Positions 33,592-49,754 of a stretch of 64,000 nucleotides of DNA are shown one piece after another. The notes beneath the pieces are model-generated. The model saw only the letters and a list, made by a program, of their open reading frames with translations. It ran no database searches and was not told the DNA's origin. Within the stretch, counting starts at the first letter, position 1; every line of letters starts with the position of its first letter. Source of the stretch: an uncultured delta proteobacterium (lineage in GTDB: Bacteria > Myxococcota_A > Polyangia > Polyangiales > Houyiibacteriaceae); assembly GCA_963699755.1 (NCBI GenBank), contig CAVOVB010000001.1:1248001-1312000 (forward strand). Direction: 5' to 3'. The position numbers were made by a program, and so were the translations under genes.

Positions 33592-34203
33592 ATGAGAAGT
33601 CTCGCACCAGTCCTAGCCGCGAGTCTGCTGTGCCTGATGGGCGCTGCGCCAGCATCGGCCGAAAACCCGGGGCAGGAGGGTGCGGTCGTGACGGTCGACA
33701 CCCTCGGCGCGGCAGCCGACTACCCGGTGCTCACCCGCGGCCAGGTGATGCTCATCAACGCGCAGCGCCTCATCGTCACCGAGGAGCCGCTCCCGCTTGC
33801 CAAGGTCGCCGAAGCGCCGCCCGCGCCAGAAGCGATCGAGGCCGACAGACCCAGCGCGCCCTATGCCGGCGCGATTTGGGTCGCACCGCACTGGATCTAC
33901 GGTCCAACGGGCTTCTCCTGGGTCGCCGGCCGCTACGTCGCGCCGCGGGCAGGTCACGTCTTCGTCCCGCCGCGCTGGGCCTCTTTCGAGGAGCAGTACT
34001 TCTACTTCTCGGGCTTCTACGTTCCGTACGGTGTCTATGTGCGCAGCTACTTCAACCGCTACTACTACAGCGGGGTGCCCAACCGGCAGTCACGGCCCGA
34101 CCACGGTCCGTACTGGCCTATCGGCGCACCGACCCGGGCGAACAGCGCGCTGAGCAGCGCCAGCGCGCGTGACCCGTACTGGCCGATCGGCGCTCGCCGC
34201 TAG
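33592..34203 (+). CDS. Secreted YXWGXW/WXXGXW-repeat-like protein
   Basis: Signal peptide ending ASA; WVAPHW, WVAGRY, FVPPRW units; duplicated PYWPIGA at the C-terminus. Confidence 0.6.
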   Translation: MRSLAPVLAASLLCLMGAAPASAENPGQEGAVVTVDTLGAAADYPVLTRGQVMLINAQRLIVTEEPLPLAKVAEAPPAPEAIEADRPSAPYAGAIWVAPHWIYGPTGFSWVAGRYVAPRAGHVFVPPRWASFEEQYFYFSGFYVPYGVYVRSYFNRYYYSGVPNRQSRPDHGPYWPIGAPTRANSALSSASARDPYWPIGARR

Positions 34204-35573
34204 AGCGCCAAGCCGCTCAAGGGGCCCTGGCTGTACTGCGGCACACCGAAGGTGCTGGCGGGTTTGTCCATCGCGTGCGTCAGCGAGACCAGAAGCTTGC
34301 CGTGGGGCTCACCTCCGAAGTCGATGTGCTGCCCGGTCCTGAAATAGCCCTGACAGCCTCCCGCCAAGATGATCGGAATGTCGCGGCGCGTGTGCGAGTT
34401 CCCTTTGCCGAGCTCGTTGACCCAAACGACCACGGTGTTGTCCAGCAAGCTGTTGTCGCCCTCCTGAATGCCATCCATCAGGCCGAGCAAGTAGGCGAAC
34501 TGCTCCGAATACCACTTGTTGATCTCGAGAAGGTCCGCTTTCGCGCTGCCATCGCTGTCGTCGTAGTGCGAAAGGCCATGGTGCCCTTCACCGAGGAGCT
34601 GCGGGACCCAGTTGAAGCGGACGCCACTCACCGAGCGTGACCATTGGAGCGAGGCGACCCGCGTGAGGTCGCAGGCGAGCGCCATCACGAGCATGTCCAT
34701 TTGGGCCTTGCCGGTGAGCGGATACATGTCGTTCTGCTCAAAGGCGCTCCCAGGCAGATTCAGCGCGGGAGAGACGCAGGCCTCACCAAAGCTCGTCGTG
34801 ATTTCGAGCCTTTGCTCGAGGTCTCGAATCGACTGCAGGTGCTTGTCGAGCTTCTGCTTGTCCTCGTAGCCGAGCCGGCTCTGGAACGCCGCGTGGTCCT
34901 CCATGACCGCGTCGAGCACGCTCTTTCGCCGTTTCTGGATGAGCCTCAGCGCGAACGGATCGGAGTCGATGTCACTGAAGAAGTCGGTGAAGTTCTGGTT
35001 CGGGTCTTCGCGCGGAGGTACGGGCTGATCGGGAGCCGAGTACGACATCCGGGACCAGACCGACGAGCTCTTCACCTGTACGCCGAGCTCGAGCGACTTG
35101 AACTTGGTGACGACGTCCTTGGCGACTTCGTCCGCAATGTACTGATCGACCGACTGGCCGCCGCCCCAGCCGACGTATTGCTCGTTGCCCGCGTCGCAGT
35201 TCCCCTCGCAGAACAAGCTGCCGGGAAGGATCTCGGCGTTGGTCAGCAGGCAGGCCATACCGGTCTGATGGCCGTCGCCGATCGAGTCGTAGGCCACGTC
35301 TTGGTCGACGCCGTCGAGGAAGATCAGCTTGTTCGAGAAGGGCGCCATCGCTGCGTGAAGAGGGTGCCCGCTCAAGTCCATGTTCCCGGGTGGGCTCCAG
35401 ATGTCTTGTCTCGTGCCGTTCGCCGTGAACCAGAAGACGATGCGCTTGGGCCCCGCCCCGGCTTGAGCGAAGCCCTTACGCGGCAGCATCGCATCGAGCA
35501 TCGGCAAGCCGATGGCCACCGTGCCGCCAAAGAGCGTGCCCTTGAGCATGGCGCGACGTTTGATCCGCTTCAC
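34200..35573 (-). CDS. DUF1552 domain Tat-exported protein
   Basis: IKRRAMLKG Tat leader, GLPMLDAM, SVDQYIA, SLELGV, ALACDLTRV, HHGLSH, LLDNT, GNSH. Confidence 0.9.
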   Translation of the reverse strand: MKRIKRRAMLKGTLFGGTVAIGLPMLDAMLPRKGFAQAGAGPKRIVFWFTANGTRQDIWSPPGNMDLSGHPLHAAMAPFSNKLIFLDGVDQDVAYDSIGDGHQTGMACLLTNAEILPGSLFCEGNCDAGNEQYVGWGGGQSVDQYIADEVAKDVVTKFKSLELGVQVKSSSVWSRMSYSAPDQPVPPREDPNQNFTDFFSDIDSDPFALRLIQKRRKSVLDAVMEDHAAFQSRLGYEDKQKLDKHLQSIRDLEQRLEITTSFGEACVSPALNLPGSAFEQNDMYPLTGKAQMDMLVMALACDLTRVASLQWSRSVSGVRFNWVPQLLGEGHHGLSHYDDSDGSAKADLLEINKWYSEQFAYLLGLMDGIQEGDNSLLDNTVVVWVNELGKGNSHTRRDIPIILAGGCQGYFRTGQHIDFGGEPHGKLLVSLTHAMDKPASTFGVPQYSQGPLSGLAL

Positions 35574-37252
35574 AGCACACCTCCATTGGCGTCGGGTTCG
35601 AGCCCGACCGCGCGGCGGTAGAGGAAGGCATTGGTCTGCGTCAGGGCGACCAGGAGCGCCTTGATGTTGAAGCCCGAGGCACGAAACACATCATTGAGCT
35701 GCTCGACGCTGCAGCTGTCTTCGGCCGTGACGGTTCGGTTGTATGCGAAACGGAACCACTGGGACGAGACGCACTCTCGTACTTGCGTACTCCCGGCGAG
35801 AGCGCTCGCGAGCTCGATCGCGCCGTCGTAGTCGCCATCGATGTCATCGGTCTGCACGACCTCCCCGGTCGCATCGATGTTCTTGCCGTTCTGCTGGTCA
35901 CGCCACTGCCCAATGGCGTCGTAGTGCTCGAAGATGAAGCCGATCGGGTTCATCAGGGTATGGCAGCCGGCGCAGGCTGGATTAGCGCCGATCTCCTCGA
36001 ACTGCTCCTTGGTGGTTTTGGTCGGGTCGAGCTCTGGCGGCACGATGACCAAATCGTTGGGCGGAGGCGGCAGCGTGTTGCACATCAGCTGCTCGCGCAC
36101 GAACTTTCCGCGAAAGACCGGCGAGCTCTGGTTGACGTTCGCATGCGTCGCCATGAGGCCTGCGCTCGTGAGGAAGCCCGCCCTGCGTTCCGGATCGACC
36201 TGCACCTGCCGAAACTCCGGTCCCGAGACCGATTCGAGCACGTCACCACCGTAAAAGCTCGCGAGCTCTTCGTTCATGAAGCTGTAGTCGGCGGTCAGGA
36301 GGGTTTCGAGCGAGCCGTCACCTTCGAGAATCACCTGCTCGACGAAGGTTTGAATCTCTTCCTTCCACAGCCCGCGGAGGGAGCTCTGGTAGGCGGGGTA
36401 GACCGCCGTGTCTTTGGTCACGCTGTCGAGATGGGTCAGCTGGAGCCACTGCGTGTGGAAGTTTCGGATGAGGTCGCGCGCCTTCTCGTCCTCGAGCATG
36501 CGCGTGGCCTGGGCCGCGATTTGCTCTTTCGTTCGCAGCTCGTCGGCCTCAGCCGCAGCGAAGAGCGCGTCGTCGGGCATCGTGTTCCAGAGCATGTAGG
36601 AGAGCTTGGTGGCCATCTCCCAGCTAGTAAACGGCACCACATCGCCTTCGATGGGAGTCTCCGCGCCAAGCTCGGGACGATAAAGGAAGGAAGGAGATTG
36701 CAGCATCACTTGAAGAACGACTTCGATGCCGTCTTCGAATCGCCCGAGGTCGGCGTCGGCGATCGCCCAGTCGAATACGCTCTGGAAGCGTTCGATTTCA
36801 GGCTCAGACAACGGTCGCCTGAACGCGCGCTTTCCAAAGTCCTCGATGAAGGACGAGGCGCAGGCGTCGTGGCCGTCGAGCTCCGGGTCGCAGCCGGGGA
36901 TGAGTGCGCTCATGTTGCCGACGGCCCGCGCGCTGATGTCCTCGGCGACCTTCATGTACTGCTCGATCAGCAGGTCACTGCTCGTGAGCGCGGCGGCCTG
37001 GTTGTTGAAGCCCGCGACTTCTTCTTCGGGCGGAAGCGCATCGGCCGGACTGCTGGTATCGCCGAGCAGGTCGCGGACGGTGCGGTTGTACTCGAACCGC
37101 GTTAGGCGCCGGATCGGCGTGTCGACGACGCAGAGGCTCTTGGCAACGGTATCGTTGATGGCGCGTTCGCCTTCGCCACCGATTGCACCGTTGCAGCCCG
37201 CGAGGAAAACGGCGGCGAGCATTGGATAGAATTTACTCCCTTGGGGCGGCAA
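35570..37252 (-). CDS. DUF1587/1595/1592/1588/1585 domain lipoprotein with CxxCH
   Basis: AAGGAG SD before TTG; lipobox LAGC; IRRLTRFEYNRTVRDLLG, LQSPSFLYRPE, SSPVFRG, CAGCH; GTGA overlap with the DUF1552 gene. Confidence 0.9.
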   Translation of the reverse strand: MPPQGSKFYPMLAAVFLAGCNGAIGGEGERAINDTVAKSLCVVDTPIRRLTRFEYNRTVRDLLGDTSSPADALPPEEEVAGFNNQAAALTSSDLLIEQYMKVAEDISARAVGNMSALIPGCDPELDGHDACASSFIEDFGKRAFRRPLSEPEIERFQSVFDWAIADADLGRFEDGIEVVLQVMLQSPSFLYRPELGAETPIEGDVVPFTSWEMATKLSYMLWNTMPDDALFAAAEADELRTKEQIAAQATRMLEDEKARDLIRNFHTQWLQLTHLDSVTKDTAVYPAYQSSLRGLWKEEIQTFVEQVILEGDGSLETLLTADYSFMNEELASFYGGDVLESVSGPEFRQVQVDPERRAGFLTSAGLMATHANVNQSSPVFRGKFVREQLMCNTLPPPPNDLVIVPPELDPTKTTKEQFEEIGANPACAGCHTLMNPIGFIFEHYDAIGQWRDQQNGKNIDATGEVVQTDDIDGDYDGAIELASALAGSTQVRECVSSQWFRFAYNRTVTAEDSCSVEQLNDVFRASGFNIKALLVALTQTNAFLYRRAVGLEPDANGGVL

Positions 37253-37435: not shown

Positions 37436-39046
37436 CTAGATGAACAGGTGCATTTGAAGGATGAACGAGTTGCCTTTTCGGCTTTCCACCGTCCCGTCCG
37501 GGTTGAAGATCGGGCGATTCCGGTATTCGAGGGTCACCTTGGCGTTGTGCTTCTCGATGAACATGTTCACGCCGAGACCGAAGTGAGCCATGATGTCGCT
37601 GTAGGCCTCCCACTTCGAGATCTGCGTGTTGACGTACGGCTGGAACTGGATCGACTGGCCCACCGTCCCCGGCAGCAGGAACCCGAGCTCGCTGTACGCC
37701 GTGTGGCCAGTTCCGAGAAGGGTGTACGCGTTTCCTCCTCCGTTCAAACCCGTGCCCGGGTCCGCGGGATTCATGATGCCGATGGGGCGGATGTGGTTCG
37801 GCCCGTAGTCGTTGTAGTAGTAGACGCCGTACCAGGTCGCCGCTCCTCCGTGTTCGGTCTTGAACGGCATGTCGAGGAACAAGTCCGCCCCAATGTTCAA
37901 CAAAGTCCGCTCTCGGATCGATGCCGGGTCGGCCGCATCCGCTAGGTACACGATACCCTTGGGTTGTGCGTGGAATCCAAACCCGAAGTTGAAGACCTTC
38001 TTCGATCCGATATAGGTCCCCACCGTGTACGGAAGCACGTTCGATTCGATGTCGAGAAACTGGAACTGGAAGTATCCCTGGTAGGCCCAGTTGTTCGCGG
38101 TGGCGTTGTAGTTCCCAACCGCGCCGACCTCGGGCACCGTCCCGGCGACCAACGAGACTTCGTAGGGAGTAAACGGCCTGGTGAACGCGAAACGGTAGTC
38201 GAACAGCCCGAGCTTGCCTTTGGCGTAGATCCCCAATTGGCGCGCGAACTGGTCGGTGCGCTCGATGGTGGTCCAGTTCACGATCGGTGCATCCAGGCTC
38301 ATCAAGGTGATCGTACTCGCGTTGGTCATACGTGAGACGCCGTTCCAGTACAGAAGCCCGGCGCCGACGTAGAGCTTGTTGTTCCTCGATAGCTGGAACT
38401 CGGCCCAGGCGTCGTGAAAGAAGAGCTGGGGCTTCCGAGCGTTTCGGAAGGTCTGGTTGTTGATGCCGATGTGCATCAGGAGAAACACGCGCGGGAAGAT
38501 CTGACCAAACGCCAGAAAGCGTGCGCGCCGGAGGCCGACGTCCGCATACCAGGGGTCCGCGTTCCCAAGCACCTCGGTGCCGGGGTTGAGCTGCATCGCC
38601 CGCGTCCAGACCTGCAGCCACATGGCGAGCCGGAAATACAGGGTTCCGTCGTCGTTCAAGCTCCATTGAAGCTTCTTGGCGCGGCCATCCGCCGAGACCA
38701 GGCCCACTCCAGTGCCCGGCGCTGATGTGGGCTCGGGGGCCAGCTTGCGGCCCATCAGCTGCATCTGGCGTTTGGCGTCCGCTAGCCGCTTTTCCATTTC
38801 CGCGATGGCCGCCTCGGCCTCGTCGAGCTCTTGCTCGAGGTCCTGCTCTGTCGGCTCGGCCGCTGGCTGGAACGCCTCCGCTTCCGCTGCGTCGTCCGCG
38901 TCGTCGATGGCTGTCTCCCCAGGAGCCGGTTGGGCCAAGGTTGAGGTGGGGACGAATCCCGCTAGCGCAACCCAGGCGATCGCTGTGAACCAGGCGCTCC
39001 ATGCTCGTTGCGGCCGAGGGCCGTCTCTACGTTCTTGCCTCATCAC
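37436..39046 (-). CDS. Outer-membrane beta-barrel (porin-like) with N-terminal acidic coiled coil
   Basis: Signal peptide; coiled coil LEQELDEAEAAIAEMEKRL; LRRARF and FHDAWAEF porin-type motifs; amphipathic last strand; last gene of the acetate operon. Start uncertain. Confidence 0.7.
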   Translation of the reverse strand: MMRQERRDGPRPQRAWSAWFTAIAWVALAGFVPTSTLAQPAPGETAIDDADDAAEAEAFQPAAEPTEQDLEQELDEAEAAIAEMEKRLADAKRQMQLMGRKLAPEPTSAPGTGVGLVSADGRAKKLQWSLNDDGTLYFRLAMWLQVWTRAMQLNPGTEVLGNADPWYADVGLRRARFLAFGQIFPRVFLLMHIGINNQTFRNARKPQLFFHDAWAEFQLSRNNKLYVGAGLLYWNGVSRMTNASTITLMSLDAPIVNWTTIERTDQFARQLGIYAKGKLGLFDYRFAFTRPFTPYEVSLVAGTVPEVGAVGNYNATANNWAYQGYFQFQFLDIESNVLPYTVGTYIGSKKVFNFGFGFHAQPKGIVYLADAADPASIRERTLLNIGADLFLDMPFKTEHGGAATWYGVYYYNDYGPNHIRPIGIMNPADPGTGLNGGGNAYTLLGTGHTAYSELGFLLPGTVGQSIQFQPYVNTQISKWEAYSDIMAHFGLGVNMFIEKHNAKVTLEYRNRPIFNPDGTVESRKGNSFILQMHLFI

Positions 39047-39074
39047 AACCTACCTCTCTGCTTCGAGTAAATCG

Positions 39075-40901
39075 CTAGTGCATAGCCGTTGGTGCCGACG
39101 AGCCCGCGGGGATGCGGATGTGCTCGACCATCTCCTGTACGTCCTGGGGTGGCGGCGGGGTGAAGCGGCCAACCACGAATGCCACCACGAAGTTGAGCAG
39201 CATGCCGAGCGCGCCGATCCCCTCCGGTGAGATCCCGAACCAGTATTGGTCGGGGGTGCCGCCCATGAACTTGAAGTAGATGATGTACGCTGCGGTGAAG
39301 GTGATTCCCACCAGCATGCCGCTGACCACGCCTTCTCGGTTGGCCTTCTTGGCAAAGACGCCGAGGATGATCGCCGGGAAGAACGACGAGCATGCGAGAC
39401 CGAAGGCAAAGGCGACGACTTGCGCGACGAACCCCGGTGGGTTGATGCCAAAGTAGCCGGCGATCAAGACCGCGACGCCGGCCGCGACACGCGCGGCAAG
39501 CAGCTCCTGTTTCTCCGTGATCGACGGGACAAACACGCGCTTGAGCAGGTCGTGGCTGATCGACGTGCTCACGACGAGCAACAAGCCAGCCGCCGTTGAA
39601 AGCGCAGCAGCCAAGCCGCCCGCAGCGACCAGCGCGATGACCCAGGCCGGCAGGTTTGCGATCTCCGGGTTGGCGAGGACGATGATGTCGCGGTCGACGT
39701 AGAGCTCGTTCTTGGTGTTCGGGTCAGCGTTGCTAACGACGCGTTGGCCGTGATCGCCGCGTGCCGGGCTGCCATCGGCGGCCTTGGCGAACTCGGGCTT
39801 ACCGGCGAGCGCAGCCCCTGCGACGTATTGGACCTTGCCATCGCCGTTCTTGTCTGCCCACGCGAGTAGGCCGGTGTCCTCCCAGGTCTTGAACCACTGG
39901 GGAATCGACTTCTCTCCCTCGACCTGCGCGTAGTTGGCTTCGCTGACCGTCTCAATCAGATTCGTACGTGCGAAGGCAGCGACTGCGGGAGCCGTGGTGT
40001 AGAGAAGCGCGATGAAGAAGAGTGCCCAGCCGGCGCTGAGGCGGGCATCACGAACTCTCGGCACCGTGTAGAAACGAACGATGACGTGGGGTAGGCCAGC
40101 GGTACCCGCCATGAGCGCGCCGGTGATGCACAGGACGTCCAATGTCGATTTGCTGCCCGACGTGTACTCGGCAAAACCGAGCTCCGTATTCAACTGATTG
40201 AGCTTGTCCAGTAGCTTGATCGTTTCTCCCCCTGCGACTTTCGAACCGACCGCACCGCCGAGCGACGCGCCGAAGCCAATCTGGGGAATCAGGTGATCGG
40301 TGAGCAGAATGCTGATGAAGATGGCCGGAACCAGATAGGCGAAGATCAAGACACAGTACTGGGCGGCCTGCGTGTACGTGATGCCTTTCATGCCGCCGAG
40401 AACGGCATAGAAGAAGACGATCGCCATGCCGATAGCGACGCCGACGTTGATCTCGACCTCGAGGAAGCGGCTGAAGACGACGCCCACGCCGCGCATCTGC
40501 CCGGCGACGTAAGTAAACGAAACGAACACGGCGCAGACGACCGCGACGATACGGGCACCAGTCGAGTAGTACCTGTCTCCGACGAAGTCAGGGACTGTGA
40601 ACTTGCCGAACTTGCGCAGATACGGTGCCAATAAGAGCGCGAGTAAGACATAGCCACCGGTCCAGCCCATCAGGTAGACGGCTCCGTCGTAGCCCATGAA
40701 CGAGATCAGGCCCGCCATGCTGATGAACGAGGCTGCGCTCATCCAGTCAGCGCCGGTCGCCATGCCGTTGACCACTGGGTGGATCCCTCGGCCGGCGATG
40801 TAGAAGTCACCGGTCGTGCTGGCACGCGACCAGATCGCGATGCCGATATAGAGCGCGAAGGTCCCGCCCACGATGATGAATGTCCAAGTCTGTACGTCCA
40901 T
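39075..40901 (-). CDS. actP: Cation/acetate symporter, SSS family (ActP-like)
   Basis: NGMATGADWMSAASFIS, GKFTVPDFVGDRY, GTAGLPHVIVRFYT, AAALSTAAGLL; AGGAGA SD. Confidence 0.88.
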   Translation of the reverse strand: MDVQTWTFIIVGGTFALYIGIAIWSRASTTGDFYIAGRGIHPVVNGMATGADWMSAASFISMAGLISFMGYDGAVYLMGWTGGYVLLALLLAPYLRKFGKFTVPDFVGDRYYSTGARIVAVVCAVFVSFTYVAGQMRGVGVVFSRFLEVEINVGVAIGMAIVFFYAVLGGMKGITYTQAAQYCVLIFAYLVPAIFISILLTDHLIPQIGFGASLGGAVGSKVAGGETIKLLDKLNQLNTELGFAEYTSGSKSTLDVLCITGALMAGTAGLPHVIVRFYTVPRVRDARLSAGWALFFIALLYTTAPAVAAFARTNLIETVSEANYAQVEGEKSIPQWFKTWEDTGLLAWADKNGDGKVQYVAGAALAGKPEFAKAADGSPARGDHGQRVVSNADPNTKNELYVDRDIIVLANPEIANLPAWVIALVAAGGLAAALSTAAGLLLVVSTSISHDLLKRVFVPSITEKQELLAARVAAGVAVLIAGYFGINPPGFVAQVVAFAFGLACSSFFPAIILGVFAKKANREGVVSGMLVGITFTAAYIIYFKFMGGTPDQYWFGISPEGIGALGMLLNFVVAFVVGRFTPPPPQDVQEMVEHIRIPAGSSAPTAMH

Positions 40902-40928
40902 GGTTCTCTCCTTTTGTGACTCGAACGA

Positions 40929-41267
40929 TCAGTCCTCGTGAACGTCAAACTCTTTGTCGAGCTTGTTCATCAACCAGGAGTAGATGAAGATCAGGGCTAC
41001 GAACACGTAGATCGAACCCTGCTGCGCAAACCAGAAACCAACCTTGAAGCCGGTGCCCGGGATGGTGAAATTGTCGAGCGCGCCCACCCAGAGAATCCCG
41101 GCGCCGTACGAGACGAGCCACCAGATAGCGAGAAATGCGAACAAGAGTCGAAGATTCCTTTTCCAGTAGCGCGTCGCGTGCTCCGCGCTGTGTGGCGCGC
41201 GGTCGTCCCTTCGTTTCGATTCGGTCGTCATCGTGTGTTCCGTTTCTCCGCCGTCGGCGGTAGTCAC
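40929..41267 (-). CDS. DUF4212 small membrane subunit of the SSS transporter
   Basis: YWKRNL, GFWFAQQGSIYVF, MNKLDKEFDV; GTGA overlap with acs stop (alternative ATG at 41231). Confidence 0.9.
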   Translation of the reverse strand: MTTADGGETEHTMTTESKRRDDRAPHSAEHATRYWKRNLRLLFAFLAIWWLVSYGAGILWVGALDNFTIPGTGFKVGFWFAQQGSIYVFVALIFIYSWLMNKLDKEFDVHED

Positions 41268-43180
41268 CCCTTCTTCAACAGCGCCTCGACCACGCTTGGG
41301 TCGGCTAGGGTCGAAAGATCTCCGAGTTGGTCTCCTTCACCGGCAGCGATCTTGCGGAGGATGCGCCGCATGATCTTTCCGGAGCGGGTCTTCGGAAGGC
41401 CGGGCACGACCCGGATTTCATCCGGCGTGGCGATCGGACCGATCGCCTGGCGCACCTGCTCTTTGAGTGCGCCTTGAAGCTCGTGTGGCTCCCAGTCTCC
41501 GCCCGCGATCGGGACGACGAAGGCAAAGATGCCCTGACCTTTGATCTCGTGCGGGCAGGGAACCACCGCTGCCTCCGCGACTGCCTGGTGCGCCACGAGC
41601 GCACTTTCCACCTCGGCAGTGCCCAGACGATGGCCGGAGACATTGATCACGTCGTCAACGCGCCCCGTAATCCAGTAGTACCCATCCTCGTCGCGTCGGC
41701 AGCCGTCGCCGGTGAAGTAGTACGGTGGATACTGAGAGAAGTACGTCTCGATGAAGCGCTTGTGGTTGCCATGAATCGTACGCGCCTGGCCCGGCCATGG
41801 GTGCTTGATGCAGAGCAAACCACTGACGTCGTTCCCCTCGAGCACCTTGCCTTCTGGGTCTACGATGACCGGCTCGATGCCGAATAGCGGGAGGGTCGCC
41901 GAGCCTGGTTTGGTAGGAGTTGCGTTCGGAAGCGGGCTGATCAGGATCCCGCCGGTTTCGGTCTGCCACCAGGTGTCAACGATGGGCACTTTACCGTTGC
42001 CCACGACCTCGCTGTACCAGCGCCATACCTCGGGGTTGATTGGCTCACCAACGGTGCCCAAGACCCGCAGGGACTTGCGGCTCGAGCCCTTGACCGGCTC
42101 CGAGCCCTCGCGCATGAGGGCTCGGAGCGCGGTGGGCGAGGTGTAGAGCGTCGTCGCGCCGATGTCATCGATGACGTTCCAGTACCTACTCGCGTTGGGA
42201 TATGTGGGAACCGATTCGAACATCACCGTGGTTATGCCGTTCGCGAGCGGACCATAAATGATATAGCTGTGGCCCGTGATCCAACCGATGTCCGCTGCGC
42301 AGAAATGAATGTCATCGGGCCGAATGTCGAAGACGTACTTGAACGTCGACGCCGCGTACGTGAGGTATCCCGCGGTGGTGTGAACCAAACCCTTCGGCTT
42401 TCCAGTCGAGCCGGAGGTATAGAGAATGAAAAGCGGGTCTTCCGAAGCCATCCATTCGCTCGGGCAGGTGATGCGCTGCTCGGCCATTGCCTCGTGCATC
42501 CAGATGTCCCGGCCTTGCTCCATGGGCACTTCGGTGTCGGTGCGCTTCACGACCAAAACACTCTCGACGATGGCAAGGCCCTCGACCGCATCGTCGGTGA
42601 TCTTCTTCAGAGGGATGCGTTTCCCGCCACGCAGGCCCTCGTTTGACGTGACCACCACCTTTGCCTCCGCATCGATGATCCGGTCACGGAGCGCGTCGGC
42701 GCTGAAACCCCCGAACACAATCGAGTGAACCGCCCCGATACGGGCGCATGCAAGCATTGTGTAGGCCAGCTCGGGAATCATCGGAAGATAGATACAAACC
42801 CTGTCGCCCTTCCGGACACCCAATGATTTCAGCGCGTTGGCTACTCGACCGACGTAGGTCTTCAGGTCGCCGAAGGAGATGTGCTCGTATTCGCCGGGCT
42901 CGTCCGCGACGAAGATGATCGCGGTCTTGTTGGGGTCCTTGGCCACGTGCCGATCGATGCAGTTGACCGCCGCATTGAGTCGACCGCCTCCAAACCAGAC
43001 GAACTCCCCCGGCCCATGTTCCTCGAACACACTGTAGGACGGGTAGAACCAGTGCAGTTCCTCGCCCTGACGTTTCCAATACTCCTGGGGGTCGGTGACG
43101 CTGTCTTCGTAGAGGCTCTGGTACTCCTCCAGATCGGTGATGCGTCTTCTGTATTTGAGCGGGGGTTGTGAGAGTGTCAT
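41264..43180 (-). CDS. acs: Acetyl-CoA synthetase (AMP-forming)
   Basis: LYTSGSTGKPKG, VGEPINPEVWRWY, DTWWQTETGG, LPKTRSGKIMRR; AAGGT SD 6 nt before ATG 43180. Confidence 0.95.
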   Translation of the reverse strand: MTLSQPPLKYRRRITDLEEYQSLYEDSVTDPQEYWKRQGEELHWFYPSYSVFEEHGPGEFVWFGGGRLNAAVNCIDRHVAKDPNKTAIIFVADEPGEYEHISFGDLKTYVGRVANALKSLGVRKGDRVCIYLPMIPELAYTMLACARIGAVHSIVFGGFSADALRDRIIDAEAKVVVTSNEGLRGGKRIPLKKITDDAVEGLAIVESVLVVKRTDTEVPMEQGRDIWMHEAMAEQRITCPSEWMASEDPLFILYTSGSTGKPKGLVHTTAGYLTYAASTFKYVFDIRPDDIHFCAADIGWITGHSYIIYGPLANGITTVMFESVPTYPNASRYWNVIDDIGATTLYTSPTALRALMREGSEPVKGSSRKSLRVLGTVGEPINPEVWRWYSEVVGNGKVPIVDTWWQTETGGILISPLPNATPTKPGSATLPLFGIEPVIVDPEGKVLEGNDVSGLLCIKHPWPGQARTIHGNHKRFIETYFSQYPPYYFTGDGCRRDEDGYYWITGRVDDVINVSGHRLGTAEVESALVAHQAVAEAAVVPCPHEIKGQGIFAFVVPIAGGDWEPHELQGALKEQVRQAIGPIATPDEIRVVPGLPKTRSGKIMRRILRKIAAGEGDQLGDLSTLADPSVVEALLKKG

Positions 43181-43214
43181 CGGCAAACCTTACATTTAGG
43201 CGCACCGATTTCCA

Positions 43215-43231
43215 CGCAATACTCGTACCAA
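43215..43231 (-). promoter_or_regulatory. sigma54 (RpoN) -24/-12 promoter of acs
   Basis: Minus strand TTGGTACGAGTATTGCG matches TGGYAC-N5-TTGC with exact GG-N10-GC spacing, 35 nt upstream of the acs ATG. Confidence 0.8.
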
Positions 43232-43283
43232 CAAGGCCGATCAAGAAACCACTTTGGATCTTCGTCTAACGCGGCGCGGCAAG

Positions 43284-43320
43284 CGTTACGATTCGTAGCA
43301 GCGCGCTACAGATCGAAACG
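43284..43320. promoter_or_regulatory. Putative CbrB enhancer (UAS): GTTAC-N5-GTAGC and GCTAC-N5-GAAAC, 20 bp apart
   Basis: Units at 43285-43299 and 43305-43319; the whole element is a 13/16 inverted repeat; about 55-90 bp upstream of the -24 box. Confidence 0.55.
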
Positions 43321-43336
43321 CTCTGGAAACGCGTAT

Positions 43337-44674
43337 TCACTGTCCAGGTGGGCGGGAATCGCGCCGAGGAATGCCCATGCGTTGTCGGCGTTCCCAGAGA
43401 GTCTTGCGGCTGATGCCAAGACGCTTCGCCAGCTCGGTCTCGCTCAGCTCGTCCTGATGCGAAAGGACGAATCGCTTGAGGTATGCTTCGAGGGACGCGT
43501 CGTCGCCATTGACCTCGCTCGGGATGCTATCGGACGGACGCGACGAAGGCAGTCCAAGCAGCTCCGCAGTGATTGGCCCAGACTCGTGAAGAATCACCGC
43601 GCGTTCGACGGCGTGCTGAAGCTCGCGCACGTTTCCGGGCCATCTGTACCCTCGCATCGCAATCACCGCGCCCCTGTCGAGCTCGAGCGGTTGGCGCCCG
43701 AGCTTCGTCGTGGCGCGTGCGATGAACACTTCGGCGAGCGCGGGGATATCGTCGCCACGTTCGCAAAGCGGTGGGAGCTCGATCTCGACGACCTTGATGC
43801 GGAAATACAGATCGGCCCGGAATTGCCCGTGTTCTACGAGCATTGGAAGGTTCCGATGAGTCGCCGCAACGAGCCGGATGTCGACCGACTCGGCCTTTCG
43901 CGCGCCGACGCGCCGGACCTCGCGCTGTTGAAGGATTCGCAGCAAGCGCGCCTGTGCGGCCTGGGACAACTCGCCGATCTCATCGAGGAAGAGCGTTCCG
44001 CCGTCGGCGGCATGCACCAGACCTTGCTGCCGGCTCGAAGCGCCCGTGAACGCGCCCTTCTCGTGTCCGAACAGCTCGGATTCGAGCAGCGTTTCTGGAA
44101 TCGACGCGCAGTTCACCGGGACGAATGCACCCGTGCGGGCGCTTTGGTTGTGCACCGCGCGCGCGATCAGCTCTTTGCCCGTGCCCGACTCACCGAGGAT
44201 CAACACCGTTGCCTCGGTCGGCGCGACTTTGCGCGCCCAACGCAAGGTTTCCTGCATTGGGCTCGATTGGGTTGCAACGATGTCGTAGGGATCTGCCTTT
44301 GCGCTCACGTCGCCCAATGCGAGCGCGGCACGCTGGCGGAGCACGCGCTCGACGGCGGCGCTCAACTCGTCTGGCTCGAAGGGCTTCGAAAGATAGTCGG
44401 CCGCACCCCGTTTCATCGCGTCCACCGCCGCGCTCACCGAACCATAGGCCGTCATCACGATGACCGGGACCTGACCTACGCGTTCAAGCAAGACGTCACC
44501 CGCCTCACCGGCCAGCCTCACGTCGGTGATCACCAAGTCGAAGCACTCGGGGCGCTCTCTTTCGGCCGCCGCAACACTCGCGACGGCGATGAGCTCGTGC
44601 CCATCCCGTTTGAGGATACGCTCGATCTCCGCGCGGATGACCCGCTCATCCTCCACCAAAAGGATCTTCGCCAC
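43337..44674 (-). CDS. cbrB: sigma54-dependent response regulator (REC-AAA+-HTH), CbrB-like
   Basis: REC domain; GESGTGKE, ELFGHEKGAFTGA; C-terminus SLEAYLKRFVLSHQDELSETELAKRLGISRKTLWERRQRMGIPRR resembles the Pseudomonas CbrB tail as I recall it. Confidence 0.8.
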   Translation of the reverse strand: MAKILLVEDERVIRAEIERILKRDGHELIAVASVAAAERERPECFDLVITDVRLAGEAGDVLLERVGQVPVIVMTAYGSVSAAVDAMKRGAADYLSKPFEPDELSAAVERVLRQRAALALGDVSAKADPYDIVATQSSPMQETLRWARKVAPTEATVLILGESGTGKELIARAVHNQSARTGAFVPVNCASIPETLLESELFGHEKGAFTGASSRQQGLVHAADGGTLFLDEIGELSQAAQARLLRILQQREVRRVGARKAESVDIRLVAATHRNLPMLVEHGQFRADLYFRIKVVEIELPPLCERGDDIPALAEVFIARATTKLGRQPLELDRGAVIAMRGYRWPGNVRELQHAVERAVILHESGPITAELLGLPSSRPSDSIPSEVNGDDASLEAYLKRFVLSHQDELSETELAKRLGISRKTLWERRQRMGIPRRDSRPPGQ

Positions 44675-44714
44675 CGGTGATTAGTACCAAAGGAGTGCAC
44701 TGTCCTTCAATCCC

Positions 44715-47582
44715 TCAGTTTTCATAGGCTTGGAGGGCGATCGTGAACCGGCTTCCGCCGGCCCGACGTGGCTCGTAACGGAGTGAGCCCCCAAAGCGCT
44801 CCACGATCTGGCGAGACACCGAAAGACCCAGCCCCGTGCCCTGGCCGTCCGGCTTCGTAGTAAAAAAGGGCTCGAAAACGCGGGAAGAAAGCTCTTCGGG
44901 GATGCCCGGGCCCTCGTCGTCCACCTCGATGAGCACCGAACCGTTGTCGACGCGCGTCCGCACGTACACGGTTGCGCCGGACGAGCAGGCCTGGCGCGCG
45001 TTGTTCAACAGGTTTACAAGGACCTGAGTTAACCCATCAGGGCTTGCCATCGCAGGTGCGTCGACGGAGAGATCCAGGTCGATTCGACAGCCCTCGGTCT
45101 CGAGCTTCGCGAGCTCCGCGGCGTTGCGGATCACTCCAGCGACGGGGATAGCCTGTAGCTCGACCGGGGTCTCATCCCGCCGGCTGAAGGTGAGCAGGCT
45201 CTGCACGATCCCGTGAATGCGCTGTGCCTCATCCACGATGATTCCGAGTCGATCGGCGGCGTCGGCCGCGCCCGGGTCCGCTGCGAGGTTCTTGGCAACC
45301 ATCAAGATTCCGGTCAGCGGGTTGCCCACTTCGTGGGCGACGCCCGAGGCCAGGGTGCCAATCGAGGAGAGGCGATCCTTGTGTGCCACGTGCCGTTCGA
45401 GCTGCCGGAGCGCAGTCACGTCTTCGACGACGAACACTCGACCCTCCTCGGACTCGCCGGGGATCGTCGCGGTTTGCGCACGCAGCTCGATCTTTCCGTC
45501 TCCCAGGTCGTACTCACGTTCGACGACCGAGCCCGTTGGCTGACGGGCGAGCTCGTCGAACAGCGGCCACCAAGGGTCTGGGATGTCATGCATCGCGTGA
45601 CCGCAAATGTCGTCTTCATCCAGGCCCGAAATGCGCTCGAGCTGTGCGTTCCAGATGACCACCTCTTCGTGGTCATCGACCGTACAGACGCCCACTGGCA
45701 GCTCCGACATCAGCCGTGAAAGGTAGCGGCGCGCCGCCTGTGCGGGTGAGTTTCGCTGCGACCCTACGGCGTAGCGCGAGTCGAGCTCTCTGAAAGCGCG
45801 CAGCCGTTCCGCGAGCGCATCTGCACGAACCGGTCGGCCACCTTGGACGTAGGTCCGGGCCGCCAGAGGGCCTATGCGCTCGCTGAGGCGTCCTTCGAGC
45901 TCGGTGATCAACCGAAGGAGCTCCGGCCGGTCCCGCGGCGGCCAGAAGACGTCGGCCGCGGCCGCGGCCTGGTAGATCTCCTCGATTGCGGTTCTCTTTC
46001 CGACGTACGAGGTCAAGCGTTCCTGAAGCGCCTCGGCGGAATCGGGGACTTGCAAGAGCCGAGTCACGCGCGGTTCACGACAGGCCTCCGCGGCGTTGCG
46101 CTCCTCAGCAGAGCGTGTGGTGAGCAGGGAGACGCCCATGAAGACGAACGCATGCGCCGTGAAGCTCAGCCAGATCGCCGGTCCTCTGGCGCCCGGGTCG
46201 GTGAAACCAAAGAGCGCGTAAAGGCTCGACGCGTCGAACTCGACGCCGAACAATGGTGATGCGGTCAGCAGCGCCCAAGAGGTCGCGCCCACGAATAACC
46301 CCGCTAGCACTCCGGCCCGTGTCGCGCGCCGCCAAAAGAGCGCGCCGAGCAATCCGGGTAGCAGATGAGTGACCGCGACGAACGAGGCGAGCCCGAGATC
46401 GACGAGCGAGCGCGTCCGCGGAAGGGTGAAATGAATGAGCAAGCCGGCGACGACGACCCCGATGATGGTCGAGCGGCGAAAGACCGCCCAACGCGTCAGC
46501 AGCGACTCAGGACTCGGCCCGAACCGCGGTACGAGATAGTTCGAAACCATGCCACTGAGGGCGATCGAAGACACCAAGATCATCGCACTTGCGGCGGACA
46601 CGGCTCCGAGGAATGCAAGCGTTTGGAGAGCTGGAGAGCTTTGAACCGCGACGAGAACATAGACGTCGGGTCGGACGCCCGGCGCTGCGAGGTCGCGGCC
46701 GGCCCAGTAGAGGATCGGCACCGGTAGGTTGATCGCGAATAGGTAGAGTGGCAGGGCCCATCGGGCGGTTTTGAGGCTTCGCGGGCCGGGTCGCTGAACA
46801 AACGCGACGAAGAACTGACGAGGAAGCAGGAACGCCGCGCAAAACGTGACGAACACAAGTGCGATCCAGGAGTCGCCCATCACCGGGCTGACCATGTTCT
46901 CGACGAGATTAGGCTGCGCTCGCAGATACTCGTTGAGGTCGCGGAACCCGCCAAAGACGGCGAACAAGGCCGCACCGCCGACCACAAGCAAAGCGATGAG
47001 CTTGAACACGCTCTCGAACGCCAGCGTTGCGATGAGCCCGGGCCGATGCGCGCGACCGTCGGCGTAACGCACGCCGAGCGTCACGGCAAATGCGCTCAAC
47101 AAGAGCGCGTAGACGGAGCCGAGCTCTTCGCTTGGTGCCTCGCCGACCAGAATCGCGGCCCCGTCCGCAACCGCACGGAGCTGCAGCGCGATATAGGGCA
47201 GCAGACCTGCGACCATGAAAAGCGAAACCGCAGCGCCCAGGGTGCGGCTTTGGTATCGAAAGGCGAAGACATCAGCGATGCTCCCGAGCCGATAACGGTC
47301 GACGAGCTCCGCCACTGGCGCCCAGAGAAAGGGGATCGCGATGCAGGACAGGGTGACGCCGAAGTAGATCGCCAAGAAGTCGTAGCCTTCGGTCGCAGCG
47401 AACCCGACGCTTCCGAACAAGGTCCAGGTCGTGGCGTAGACGCCGAGAGCGAGCGCGTAGCTGAAACGGTTGCGCCCCAGGCGGCCCCAGCGTGGCGAGC
47501 GTTCGACGACCTCTGAGCCGAGGATGTAGAGGCCGAGCAGTGCGACCGCGAGGAAGAAGAGGATGAAGTGATTAAGCTGCAT
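44715..47582 (-). CDS. cbrA: SLC5-STAC-PAS-HisKA-HATPase sensor histidine kinase, CbrA-like
   Basis: YALALGVYATTW.LFGSVG, ESVFKL, LLPRQF SLC5 sensor motifs; STAC-like helices; PAS; GVAHEVGNPLTGI H-box; no C-terminal REC domain. Confidence 0.82.
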   Translation of the reverse strand: MQLNHFILFFLAVALLGLYILGSEVVERSPRWGRLGRNRFSYALALGVYATTWTLFGSVGFAATEGYDFLAIYFGVTLSCIAIPFLWAPVAELVDRYRLGSIADVFAFRYQSRTLGAAVSLFMVAGLLPYIALQLRAVADGAAILVGEAPSEELGSVYALLLSAFAVTLGVRYADGRAHRPGLIATLAFESVFKLIALLVVGGAALFAVFGGFRDLNEYLRAQPNLVENMVSPVMGDSWIALVFVTFCAAFLLPRQFFVAFVQRPGPRSLKTARWALPLYLFAINLPVPILYWAGRDLAAPGVRPDVYVLVAVQSSPALQTLAFLGAVSAASAMILVSSIALSGMVSNYLVPRFGPSPESLLTRWAVFRRSTIIGVVVAGLLIHFTLPRTRSLVDLGLASFVAVTHLLPGLLGALFWRRATRAGVLAGLFVGATSWALLTASPLFGVEFDASSLYALFGFTDPGARGPAIWLSFTAHAFVFMGVSLLTTRSAEERNAAEACREPRVTRLLQVPDSAEALQERLTSYVGKRTAIEEIYQAAAAADVFWPPRDRPELLRLITELEGRLSERIGPLAARTYVQGGRPVRADALAERLRAFRELDSRYAVGSQRNSPAQAARRYLSRLMSELPVGVCTVDDHEEVVIWNAQLERISGLDEDDICGHAMHDIPDPWWPLFDELARQPTGSVVEREYDLGDGKIELRAQTATIPGESEEGRVFVVEDVTALRQLERHVAHKDRLSSIGTLASGVAHEVGNPLTGILMVAKNLAADPGAADAADRLGIIVDEAQRIHGIVQSLLTFSRRDETPVELQAIPVAGVIRNAAELAKLETEGCRIDLDLSVDAPAMASPDGLTQVLVNLLNNARQACSSGATVYVRTRVDNGSVLIEVDDEGPGIPEELSSRVFEPFFTTKPDGQGTGLGLSVSRQIVERFGGSLRYEPRRAGGSRFTIALQAYEN

Positions 47583-47739
47583 GGTCGGTGCGATGAATCA
47601 GCGCCACGACCGCGATCATCCCCAGCCAGAATGCAAAGGGAGACCACCAGGTCTGAAGCCAGACAGCCCGAACCGGGGTCGCGATGAGCACGATCGCAAC
47701 CGCGAACAGAAGCAGCGCACGCTCTTGCTCCCTGTTCAT
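47572..47739 (-). CDS. cbrX: 55-aa two-TM small protein, CbrX-like (not in the ORF track)
   Basis: MNREQERALLLFAVAIVLIATPVRAVWLQTWWSPFAFWLGMIAVVALIHRTDHAA*; ATG abuts the prpE stop (TAAATG); stop overlaps the cbrA start by 11 nt. Confidence 0.75.
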   Translation of the reverse strand: MNREQERALLLFAVAIVLIATPVRAVWLQTWWSPFAFWLGMIAVVALIHRTDHAA

Positions 47740-49626
47740 TTATGCGTAGCCGATGGCCTGCAGGCGTTCGGCGATTTCGTCGAGGATGACCGGGTCGTCG
47801 ATCGTTGCCGGCATCTTCCATTGCGCCCCGTCCGCGATCTTCTTCATCGTGCCGCGCAGAATCTTGCCTGAACGAGTCTTGGGTAGGCGCTGCACGACGA
47901 TCGCGGTCTTAAAAGCCGCAACCGGGCCAATCTCGTCGCGGACCATCTGGATGACCTCGGACACGATCTCGTGCTCGGGGCGATCGACGCCCGCATTGAG
48001 TACCAAGAGGCCAAGTGGGATCTCGCCCTTGAGCTGATCGGCGACGCCCATGACCGCGCATTCGGCCACGTCTGCGTGCGCCGAAATGACTTCTTCCATG
48101 CCGCCGGTCGATAGGCGATGTCCGGCAACGTTGATGATGTCGTCGGTCCGGGACATCACGTAGACGTAGCCATCGTCATCGATGAAGCCCGCGTCCGCGG
48201 TCTTGTAGTAGCCGGGAAACTCGGTCATGTACGAGCTCACGAAGCGGTCGTCGTCGTTCCAAAGCGTCGGCAGCGATCCTGGAGGAAGCGGAAGCTTGAC
48301 CACCAACGCCCCTGTCTTCCCGCGCGGAAGCTCGTGACAACCCTCGTCGACGACGCGAACGTCCCAGCCGGGCACGGCAATCGTCGGCGACCCGTGCTTG
48401 ATCGGAAGCTGCTCGATTCCTAGGCAATTCGCACAGATTGCCCAGCCGGTTTCGGTTTGCCACCAATGATCGATGACCGGTACGCCAAGCTTTGCTTCCG
48501 CCCATTGCAAGGTATCGGGGTCAGACCGCTCGCCGGCTAAGAACAAGGCGCGCAGCGTGCTCGTGTCGTAGTCGCCGAGCAGCTCTCCGTTGGGGTCTTC
48601 CTTCTTGATCGCACGAAACGCGGTCGGAGCGGTGAAGAGGCAGTTGACCCCATGGTCCTCGATGACTCGCCAGAATGCACCGGCATCCGGCGTCCCCACC
48701 GGCTTCCCCTCGTAGAGGATCGTCGTGGTTCCGTTCAGAAGCGGCCCGTAAACGATGTAGGAATGGCCGACGACCCAGCCCACGTCTGAGGCAGCCCAGT
48801 ACACTTCACCAGGCTGAACACCATAGACATTGCGCATCGACCACCGAAGCGCGACCGCATGACCTCCGTTGTCACGAACCACGCCTTTGGGGATGCCAGT
48901 GGTTCCGGAGGTGTACAGGATATACAGGGGATCGGTGGCGGCAACGGGCACGCAATCGTGTGGCTTGGCTGCTGCCACCGCGTCTTGCCAGGATGTGTCA
49001 CGGCCCTCGGTCAACTCACACTCGCAGCTTTCGCGCTGCCGGATGATGCATCTCTCGGGCTTGTGCTTCGATAGCTCGATCGCCTGATCGAGCAAGGGCT
49101 TGTATTCGATGACGCGCATGCCTTCGATGCCGCAAGACGCGGAAACGATGATCTTTGGCTCGGCATCGTCGATGCGGGTTGCCAGCTCCTGCGGGGCGAA
49201 TCCACCGAACACCACCGAGTGCACTGCACCTAGCCGCGCGCAGGCTAGCATCGCGATGACCGCCTCGGGGATCATCGGCATGTAGAGCAGGATCCGGTCG
49301 CCCTTGACGACGCCTTGCGATGCCAGAGCGCCTGCGAAGATGGCGACCTCCTTTCGGAGCTGACGATAGGTGTAGGTTCTTCGCTGGCGTGTGACCGCGC
49401 TGTCGTAGATGAGGGCCGCTTGATTCCCGCGCTTCTCGACGTGCCGGTCCAGGGCGTTGTAACAGGTGTTGAGTTGCGCTCCGGTGAACCAACGATAGAA
49501 CGGAGGGTTCGAGCTATCGAGGACCTTGTCCCAGCGCTTGATCCAGTCAATTCCCTCTGCCTGCTCTGCCCAAAAACCTTCTGGGTCTTCGAGCGAACGA
49601 CGACGCATTTCCAAAGTTGCCGACAT
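47740..49626 (-). CDS. prpE: Propionyl-CoA synthetase
   Basis: LYTSGTTGIPKGVVRDNGGH, FLAGERSDP, DHWWQTETGW, LPKTRSGKILRG; GGAG SD. Confidence 0.9.
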   Translation of the reverse strand: MSATLEMRRRSLEDPEGFWAEQAEGIDWIKRWDKVLDSSNPPFYRWFTGAQLNTCYNALDRHVEKRGNQAALIYDSAVTRQRRTYTYRQLRKEVAIFAGALASQGVVKGDRILLYMPMIPEAVIAMLACARLGAVHSVVFGGFAPQELATRIDDAEPKIIVSASCGIEGMRVIEYKPLLDQAIELSKHKPERCIIRQRESCECELTEGRDTSWQDAVAAAKPHDCVPVAATDPLYILYTSGTTGIPKGVVRDNGGHAVALRWSMRNVYGVQPGEVYWAASDVGWVVGHSYIVYGPLLNGTTTILYEGKPVGTPDAGAFWRVIEDHGVNCLFTAPTAFRAIKKEDPNGELLGDYDTSTLRALFLAGERSDPDTLQWAEAKLGVPVIDHWWQTETGWAICANCLGIEQLPIKHGSPTIAVPGWDVRVVDEGCHELPRGKTGALVVKLPLPPGSLPTLWNDDDRFVSSYMTEFPGYYKTADAGFIDDDGYVYVMSRTDDIINVAGHRLSTGGMEEVISAHADVAECAVMGVADQLKGEIPLGLLVLNAGVDRPEHEIVSEVIQMVRDEIGPVAAFKTAIVVQRLPKTRSGKILRGTMKKIADGAQWKMPATIDDPVILDEIAERLQAIGYA

Positions 49627-49754
49627 GATGAAGCTCTCCGGCGCGTTACAATACTGCGGCGCTCCGTCGAAAGCGAGCGTCTTCGAACGAAGAGAGCGCC
49701 CCTGGGGTTGACTTCGCGCGTCAGCTAGTCAGTGTTTCCGGAGGAGACTCGTGA

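Follow-up and report, generated by a model that had tools for sequence, protein, structure and literature searches.

How is the acetate operon of a myxobacterium controlled when its nearest regulators resemble CbrA and CbrB? The question is raised by a gene cluster in a 64,000 nt stretch of DNA (termed here the window) from an uncultured delta proteobacterium of the Myxococcota (GenBank assembly GCA_963699755.1, contig CAVOVB010000001.1, positions 1,248,001 to 1,312,000). In this cluster a module resembling CbrX-CbrA-CbrB of Pseudomonas adjoins an acetyl-CoA synthetase gene (acs). In a 2022 review, CbrAB is described as confined to Pseudomonas and Azotobacter and unique to the Pseudomonadaceae, and its origin is argued from this narrow range (PMC8871633). 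A 2026 structure paper describes the activating signal of CbrA as still elusive (PMC13022988). The analysis presented here points to the module as a local switch for acetate or other short-chain acids, predicted to activate the adjacent acs-DUF4212-symporter-porin operon via sigma-54; a probability of about 0.68 is assigned to this reading. Direct control of the acs operon by the module is well supported by comparison and is highly probable, and a short-chain acid is the probable signal. What appears to be new is a full CbrAB counterpart in a myxobacterium, with a different, local output. A literature search, with most subscription papers outside its scope, found no description of CbrAB driving acs, nor of CbrAB in myxobacteria; the initial annotation likewise knew of none. 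The features on which the argument turns are as follows, in window coordinates.

47572..47739, minus strand: CbrX orthologue, 55 amino acids (CbrX 10ED_X the sole PDB match; profile ranking; modelled complex)
44715..47582, minus strand: CbrA-type SLC5-STAC-PAS-histidine kinase, 955 amino acids, no REC, H750, CrbS-like pocket (T51, T54, I72, T246, R255)
43337..44674, minus strand: CbrB orthologue, sigma-54 activator (D51, GAFTGA, CbrB-type HTH)
43266..43309, no strand assigned: predicted enhancer block, core palindrome GCTAC-N5-GTAAC at 43285-43299
43215..43231, minus strand: predicted sigma-54 -24/-12 promoter
41264..43180, minus strand: acetyl-CoA synthetase (acs; TIGR02188, 967 bits against a cut-off of 725)

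PAS, HisKA and HATPase domains were identified in the kinase, which lacks a REC. Its residues 34-585 match the SLC5-STAC chain of the CbrA cryo-EM structure (10ED_A, E=5e-94), and a STAC motif of the LGPxxA type, as defined in PMC4834066, is found at G571-P572-A575. In a tree of 89 SLC5-STAC sequences, kept from 112 after 23 near-duplicate or partial rows were dropped, the kinase falls with CbrA-type kinases and is set apart from CrbS by a long branch. The kinase core is 39% identical to that of CbrA vs 23-26% to that of CrbS; the PAS domain is 30% identical to CbrA (E~1e-13) and has no meaningful match to CrbS. Domains, tree and core identity agree on the CbrA-type assignment first proposed. 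A Foldseek search with the full-length kinase model gave solely kinase folds among the matches listed and is uninformative on the SLC5 part.

The transporter pocket was compared at the 12 positions named in the structure paper as lining or contacting the histidine site (PMC13022988). Eleven are identical to those of Pseudomonas entomophila CrbS and 6 to those of CbrA; the window kinase thus carries half of the CbrA histidine-pocket set and lacks the CbrA residues S53, A56, C74, F248, S251 and H257, with Arg255 at the position of His257 and Thr246 at that of Phe248. The pocket signature PRQF is common to CrbS, an archaeal protein and non-pseudomonad CbrA-type kinases. As the pseudomonad branch alone deviates, the pseudomonad pocket appears to be the derived one. 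A Methanothrix SLC5-STAC protein (L039:9890-13009) displays the PRQF pocket, together with a small hydrophobic open reading frame that overlaps its start in the manner of cbrX.

The partner of the kinase is a REC-AAA+-HTH protein with D51, Walker A and B motifs and GAFTGA at 207. It is 51% identical to Pseudomonas CbrB, and its K194 stands at the position of CbrB K196. Regulator and CbrB form one clade apart from 20 paralogues of the same genome, with support of 1.0 (FastTree) and 81 (IQ-TREE, after re-rooting, upon which support labels may move by a node). The HTH aligns with that of CbrB and is the sole CbrB-type HTH found in the genome. Phylogenetic comparison, one of the checks proposed in the initial annotation, places the kinase with CbrA and the regulator with CbrB. 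The GAFTGA loop of CbrB has been lost repeatedly elsewhere (L127, L033, L249, L034, L041); in L033 and L249 the operator is kept before symporter genes and no -24/-12 site is seen, a possible move to sigma-54-independent control.

The 55-amino-acid open reading frame has CbrX 10ED_X as its sole PDB match (E=0.2 with the single sequence, 0.036 with a profile), and a profile built from Myxococcota copies of the peptide alone ranks open reading frames upstream of gammaproteobacterial cbrA next. When modelled with the kinase, the peptide gave a score of 0.87 (best control 0.00; runs agree 100%; partner pLDDT 85), the score mark being one reached by 116/157 solved pairs vs 2/215 mismatched pairs, although the pass may be due to likeness to the 10ED structure. 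Predicted contacts lie on kinase residues 67-85, 217-243 and 271-289 and, by a reading of helix order, would fit the TM3/TM8/periplasmic-loop site reported for CbrX (PMC13022988). Judged by sequence and model, the peptide is a CbrX orthologue, encoded by an overlapping gene and predicted to pack on the SLC5 domain. Counterparts of all three proteins are present, and the module is complete, as originally claimed.

Between the regulator gene and acs lie a conserved block, with GCTAC-N5-GTAAC at its centre, and a -24/-12 site at 43231-43215, where such a promoter had been noted. The half-sites match the CbrB consensus subsites TGTTAC/GTAACA given in PMC8871633; the spacing differs. Although the -24/-12 pattern occurs in 45 copies in the genome (~6.5e-4 per 154 nt), the acs copy alone has the enhancer palindrome upstream, and a genome-wide scan found no second palindrome-plus-promoter site. 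A genome-wide regulon was rejected on this count. Tandem GTTAC/GTAAC repeats are found at G000:C1:1806890-1806935 before a TetR-like gene (labelled by inspection), with no -24/-12 site paired to them in that scan, and are likely that gene's own operator. Upstream of the prpE-like gene at the head of the cluster no -24/-12 site and no palindrome or enhancer was found, and sigma-54 control of that gene was likewise rejected. A simple promoter and terminator scan gave results at chance level.

Comparison within the genus links these sites to the activator. In genomes with the activator adjoining acs, GYTAC-N5-GTAAC lies 68-71 nt before the -24 box in 26 of 26, and a full -12 (TTGC) is present in 24 of 26. 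Where acs has no activator beside it, the palindrome remains in 1/20 and an intact -24/-12 in 1/20, values that overstate independence in that many of these 20 are plain deletions that include the promoter, or have acs in another context; five cases are informative. G164 has kept the enhancer, but its GAFTGA loop is disrupted and its -12 degraded. G015 has lost the activator save for a 24-codon remnant, has kept the enhancer and has a broken -12. Both activator and enhancer are lost from G193 and G014, and the promoter is weakened or gone (decay of the -12 or -24). The informative losses sit on several separate branches of the acs tree. The acs of G008 (52% identical) was excluded from the promoter tally. 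In G448 and G449 kinase and regulator appear to lie apart, but the genes concerned are truncated and the contigs may have been broken in assembly; neither was counted as a loss event. That enhancer and promoter are retained along with a working activator supports the wiring of the module to acs. A deletion common to L162, L164, L168, L174, L181 and L194 has removed the whole module and brought the sequence before prpE next to acs; the junction forms a TATAAG hexamer that may act as a new sigma-70 promoter.

Genome completeness is 100% and contamination 9%. The genome has rpoN, three genes of the HU/IHF family and roughly 20 sigma-54 activators, many of them NtrC-like paralogues. No second SLC5 kinase or CrbS-type kinase was found in it. 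Neither Hfq nor isocitrate lyase was found in the genome; Crc and CrbR were not searched for. A ccr gene is clustered with genes for a B12 mutase, a RamB-like regulator and an acyl-CoA dehydrogenase (L183:7619-15210; G000:C8), which suggests a probable ethylmalonyl-CoA pathway. The named close homologues of the kinase carry source labels of Polyangiales, Myxococcales, Myxococcota or Deltaproteobacteria, consistent with the non-gammaproteobacterial host first suggested. Expression was sought in one metatranscriptome, which contained 9% of the sampled words; its contigs were mixed and mostly less than 95% alike, and it was uninformative.

The remaining features of the cluster are listed below.

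49648..49678, minus strand: conserved element upstream of the prpE-cbrXAB unit, with a sigma-70-like -10 in an alignment of 12 upstream regions; putative promoter
47740..49626, minus strand: PrpE-like short-chain acyl-CoA synthetase, 628 amino acids (best NCBIfam matches PrpE, sub-cut-off)
40929..41267, minus strand: DUF4212 symporter small subunit, whose start overlaps the acs stop
39075..40901, minus strand: VC_2705-family solute symporter, not ActP proper (TIGR03648)
37436..39046, minus strand: probable outer-membrane porin (weak ExtI match; Atlas porin clusters at 0.97)

All eight open reading frames are on the minus strand in the order first read: prpE-like gene, 55-amino-acid open reading frame, kinase, regulator, acs, DUF4212, symporter and porin. 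Junctions are tight. The 55-amino-acid frame starts directly after the prpE-like stop and overlaps the kinase start by 11 nt, and the acs stop overlaps the DUF4212 start; the acs start is most likely the conserved ATG at 43180. Some gene labels of the initial annotation require revision. The symporter is of the VC_2705 type (TIGR03648, 849 bits vs a cut-off of 321); a true ActP was ruled out by a TIGR02711 score of 123 vs a cut-off of 1099, and the actP label falls. The prpE label holds in part: the enzyme scores below both PrpE equivalog cut-offs (770/955 and 717/827 for TIGR02316/NF007815), and its near relatives, 66-72% identical, are encoded within or close to prpBCD clusters. The porin label is probable, with the ExtI match and the Atlas clusters as its basis. 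The acetate/propionate operon attributed to sigma-54 is retained for acs-DUF4212-symporter-porin, which lie downstream of the promoter, and not for the prpE-like gene, which lies upstream. The cluster has a GC content of 60-65%, with GC3 and codon adaptation inside the genome's range; on these grounds a recent horizontal acquisition was rejected. The suggested codon-usage check for horizontal transfer finds all eight genes native (9th-94th percentile). Directly downstream of the porin gene is a pair of DUF1592-family and DUF1552 genes (window 34200-37252).

The proposed mechanism is a two-component phosphotransfer. The kinase would sense acetate or propionate, or a cytoplasmic derivative, autophosphorylate H750 and pass the phosphate to D51 of the regulator. 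The activator would bind GYTAC-N5-GTAAC ~70 nt before the promoter, and its GAFTGA loop would open sigma-54 polymerase. This promoter could drive acs-DUF4212-symporter-porin only; transcription of the prpE-like gene and the regulators probably starts at another promoter, farther upstream. Porin and symporter would import the acid, Acs would turn it into acetyl-CoA, and assimilation would fall to the ethylmalonyl-CoA genes found at another place in the genome. The regulon would apparently consist of this single operon and lack a CrcZ/Hfq layer.

SLC5 kinases in general are described as widespread, and the distribution of this type is patchy. The kinase is found in 29/55 genomes of the genus and in 17/401 of Myxococcota, 11 of those 17 being of this genus. 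Five of the six matches outside the genus have a CbrB-type partner. Four of these five lie beside acs and a symporter, each arrangement being different, and palindrome and -24/-12 are found at 3 of the 4 acs loci. Sorangium cellulosum So0157-2 has the kinase with no regulator within 10 kb. In Gammaproteobacteria 41/400 genomes scored for the kinase; 20 of the 41 loci were examined, picked by high score and long contigs and therefore biased to the window's type. All 20 are non-pseudomonad and have the PRQF pocket, and 14 are near acs, symporter or prp genes. Thirteen directly follow a tRNA-synthetase-like gene, presumably gluQ, that also precedes Pseudomonas cbrA. Six of the 14 short-chain-acid loci have palindrome and -24/-12 before acid-uptake genes. 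Both sites lie before acetate genes in L120, L121 and L122 and likewise in L243, L245, L248, L252, L254 and L259. Palindromes number 30 in 16 of the 20 loci vs a shuffled mean of 1.05, 8 vs 1.7 in 34 loci of the pseudomonad branch, and 1 vs 0.65 in 23 unrelated kinase loci. The synteny search first proposed shows that the wiring recurs in four further Myxococcota lineages and among Gammaproteobacteria other than pseudomonads. Autoregulation is suggested in L241-L246, L248-L252, L254, L256-L258, L030, L032 and L072 by a single GYTAC-N5-GTAAC just ahead of cbrX, a site that the window's arrangement lacks.

No kinase score in the CbrA range was found in 251 alphaproteobacterial genomes, and 301 Desulfobacterota genomes gave one borderline CbrA-type match. 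The CbrB-type HTH is present in 15 of these 301. At four Desulfobacterota loci (L273, L293, L294, L295) it occurs with a PRQF kinase and a symporter, in 2 of the 4 also with acs and a prpE-like gene, and palindrome and promoter are found in 3 of the 4. In the single regulator compared, the catalytic part falls outside the CbrB clade, and the Desulfobacterota version is therefore regarded as a cousin system. L273, L293-L296 and L305 have an SLC5 kinase and two tandem sigma-54 activators with a CBS-nucleotidyltransferase gene between them. In L298, L299, L302 and L304 the CbrB-type HTH belongs to activators that lack a matching REC domain and have no SLC5 kinase close by; two palindromes and a -24/-12 site lie downstream in L299.

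In the pseudomonad branch, cbrB is followed by a sigma-54 site and then an A-rich tract in 24/27 loci. Among seven sources, Rfam recognises CrcZ in the Pseudomonas locus alone. A sigma-54 promoter, CbrB half-sites and a tract rich in AANAANAA follow cbrB in Marinobacter, halomonads, Cellvibrionaceae, Halieaceae, Oleispira and others (tracts in L035, L036, L038, L040, L042-L044, L046-L048, L053, L060, L062, L065-L068, L070 and L073). These tracts are probably CrcZ-like RNAs, Rfam having missed the three tested. A pseudomonad acs 5-8 kb downstream of cbrB groups with the cbrB-adjoining acs of PRQF loci (support 93), and CrbS-linked acs is in a separate clade (support 97); the locus tags of Pseudomonas putida agree (cbrB is PP4696 and AcsA-II is PP_4702). 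The original remark that acs sits where crcZ would be is borne out, as pseudomonads have CrcZ where the acetate operon starts.

Several observations weigh against the module being an acetate switch. Besides the dependence among the 20 genomes with no activator beside acs, G019, a close relative of the window, has lost activator and enhancer yet has an intact -24/-12. The kinase N-terminus has no match in 26/55 genomes of the genus, most of which keep acs, and of the 14 gammaproteobacterial short-chain-acid loci 6 have no palindrome-plus-promoter unit and 2 have the palindrome only. The PRQF pocket is family-wide, the archaeal protein included, which would make it ancestral and not acetate-specific, and acetate binding is not proven by it. 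As the SLC5 domain was exchangeable or dispensable for signalling in published chimera and deletion work (PMC5715377, PMC6591292), the pocket need not define the signal. The same wiring might serve a kinase that reads general carbon status via its PAS domain, a mode of sensing proposed for Pseudomonas CbrA, the operon being a starvation-induced scavenging unit and not acetate-induced. PAS and kinase core are indeed CbrA-like, and in P. putida the PAS domain is reported as essential and the membrane domain as dispensable (PMC6591292). Yet the genome scan gave just a single enhancer-plus-promoter site, and acetate or propionate genes are the neighbours in three phyla, so this alternative is considered unlikely. 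That the adjacency is incidental, with another of the roughly 20 sigma-54 activators driving acs, is very improbable: NtrC-like paralogues are many, but the palindrome is CbrB-like, this regulator alone has a CbrB-type HTH, and the promoter decays upon loss or breakage of this activator. The acetate-switch reading, in which a CbrAB architecture does a CrbSR-type job as the initial annotation supposed, is supported by orthology, by the host, by the lack of a second SLC5 kinase among those found and by a CbrB-like enhancer that travels with the activator.

How the arrangement arose is a separate matter. Of "ancestral or rewired", ancestral is favoured because the arrangement is widespread and not a local oddity, and the simplest reading would be an old CbrAB-acs link later overlaid by CrcZ. 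It is hypothesized, at slightly better than even odds, that CbrAB was at first a local switch, acting through sigma-54, for acetate and other short-chain acids and is still so in Myxococcota and many Gammaproteobacteria; that the pseudomonad master regulator of catabolite repression was derived when a CrcZ-type RNA took the post-cbrB promoter and the pocket was remodelled, leaving AcsA-II as a fossil target; and that in Desulfobacterota an acetate cluster with an SLC5 kinase makes use of the same operator and DNA-binding domain. Alternatively, an old transfer from Gammaproteobacteria might have brought the module into Myxococcota as a ready-made acetate cassette, with regulation as described and no shared ancestor implied. 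The patchy occurrence in Myxococcota and the near absence of CbrA-type scores from the alphaproteobacterial and Desulfobacterota genomes fit such a transfer, as does the grouping of one Myxococcota regulator (L123) with gammaproteobacterial ones. Against it, the Myxococcota copies of kinase plus regulator group together outside every sampled gammaproteobacterial one, 4/5 Myxococcota acs genes from module loci group together, and codon usage is native; the transfer is given tentative standing, below even odds. In a kinase-plus-regulator tree of 39 taxa (a fast search, like the other trees, with a provisional midpoint root), Myxococcota and Gammaproteobacteria are separate and pseudomonads nest among PRQF gammaproteobacteria.

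The window's version would offer a concrete route from a local catabolic switch to a global regulator, and a second, sigma-54-dependent way to control the acetate switch beside CrbS/CrbR. Because it comprises one operon with a well-defined operator and output, and because loss mutants occur naturally, a simple reporter could be used to ask what the signal is and what the pocket does.

The locus shares with CbrX-CbrA-CbrB-CrcZ of Pseudomonas and Azotobacter the gene order, the overlapping peptide gene, an SLC5-STAC-PAS-kinase with no REC, an NtrC-type activator, GTTAC/GTAAC half-sites and a sigma-54 promoter directly after cbrB. It differs in that the predicted target is a protein operon and not CrcZ (at the window locus no Rfam match and no AANAANAA motif was found for a CrcZ-type RNA), in the half-site spacing of 5 nt vs 12-19, in a genome where Hfq was not found and in a Myxococcota host. 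With CrbS/CrbR (MxtR/ErdR) of Vibrio and Pseudomonas it has in common an SLC5-STAC sensor with the same pocket residues and, as predicted targets, acs and a symporter with small subunit, as well as the CBS-nucleotidyltransferase gene in relatives. CrbS, however, is a hybrid kinase with a C-terminal REC and a different kinase core, and CrbR is of the LuxR type, described as acting at RpoD promoters with a GAC-N4-GTC motif (PMC5715377; bioRxiv 10.64898/2026.09.07.749794), whereas the window partner is a sigma-54 activator. RpuS/RpuR of Sinorhizobium fredii is, by its description, also an SLC5/STAC kinase system that controls a monocarboxylate symporter, but one concerned with pyruvate and MctP (PMC9100948).

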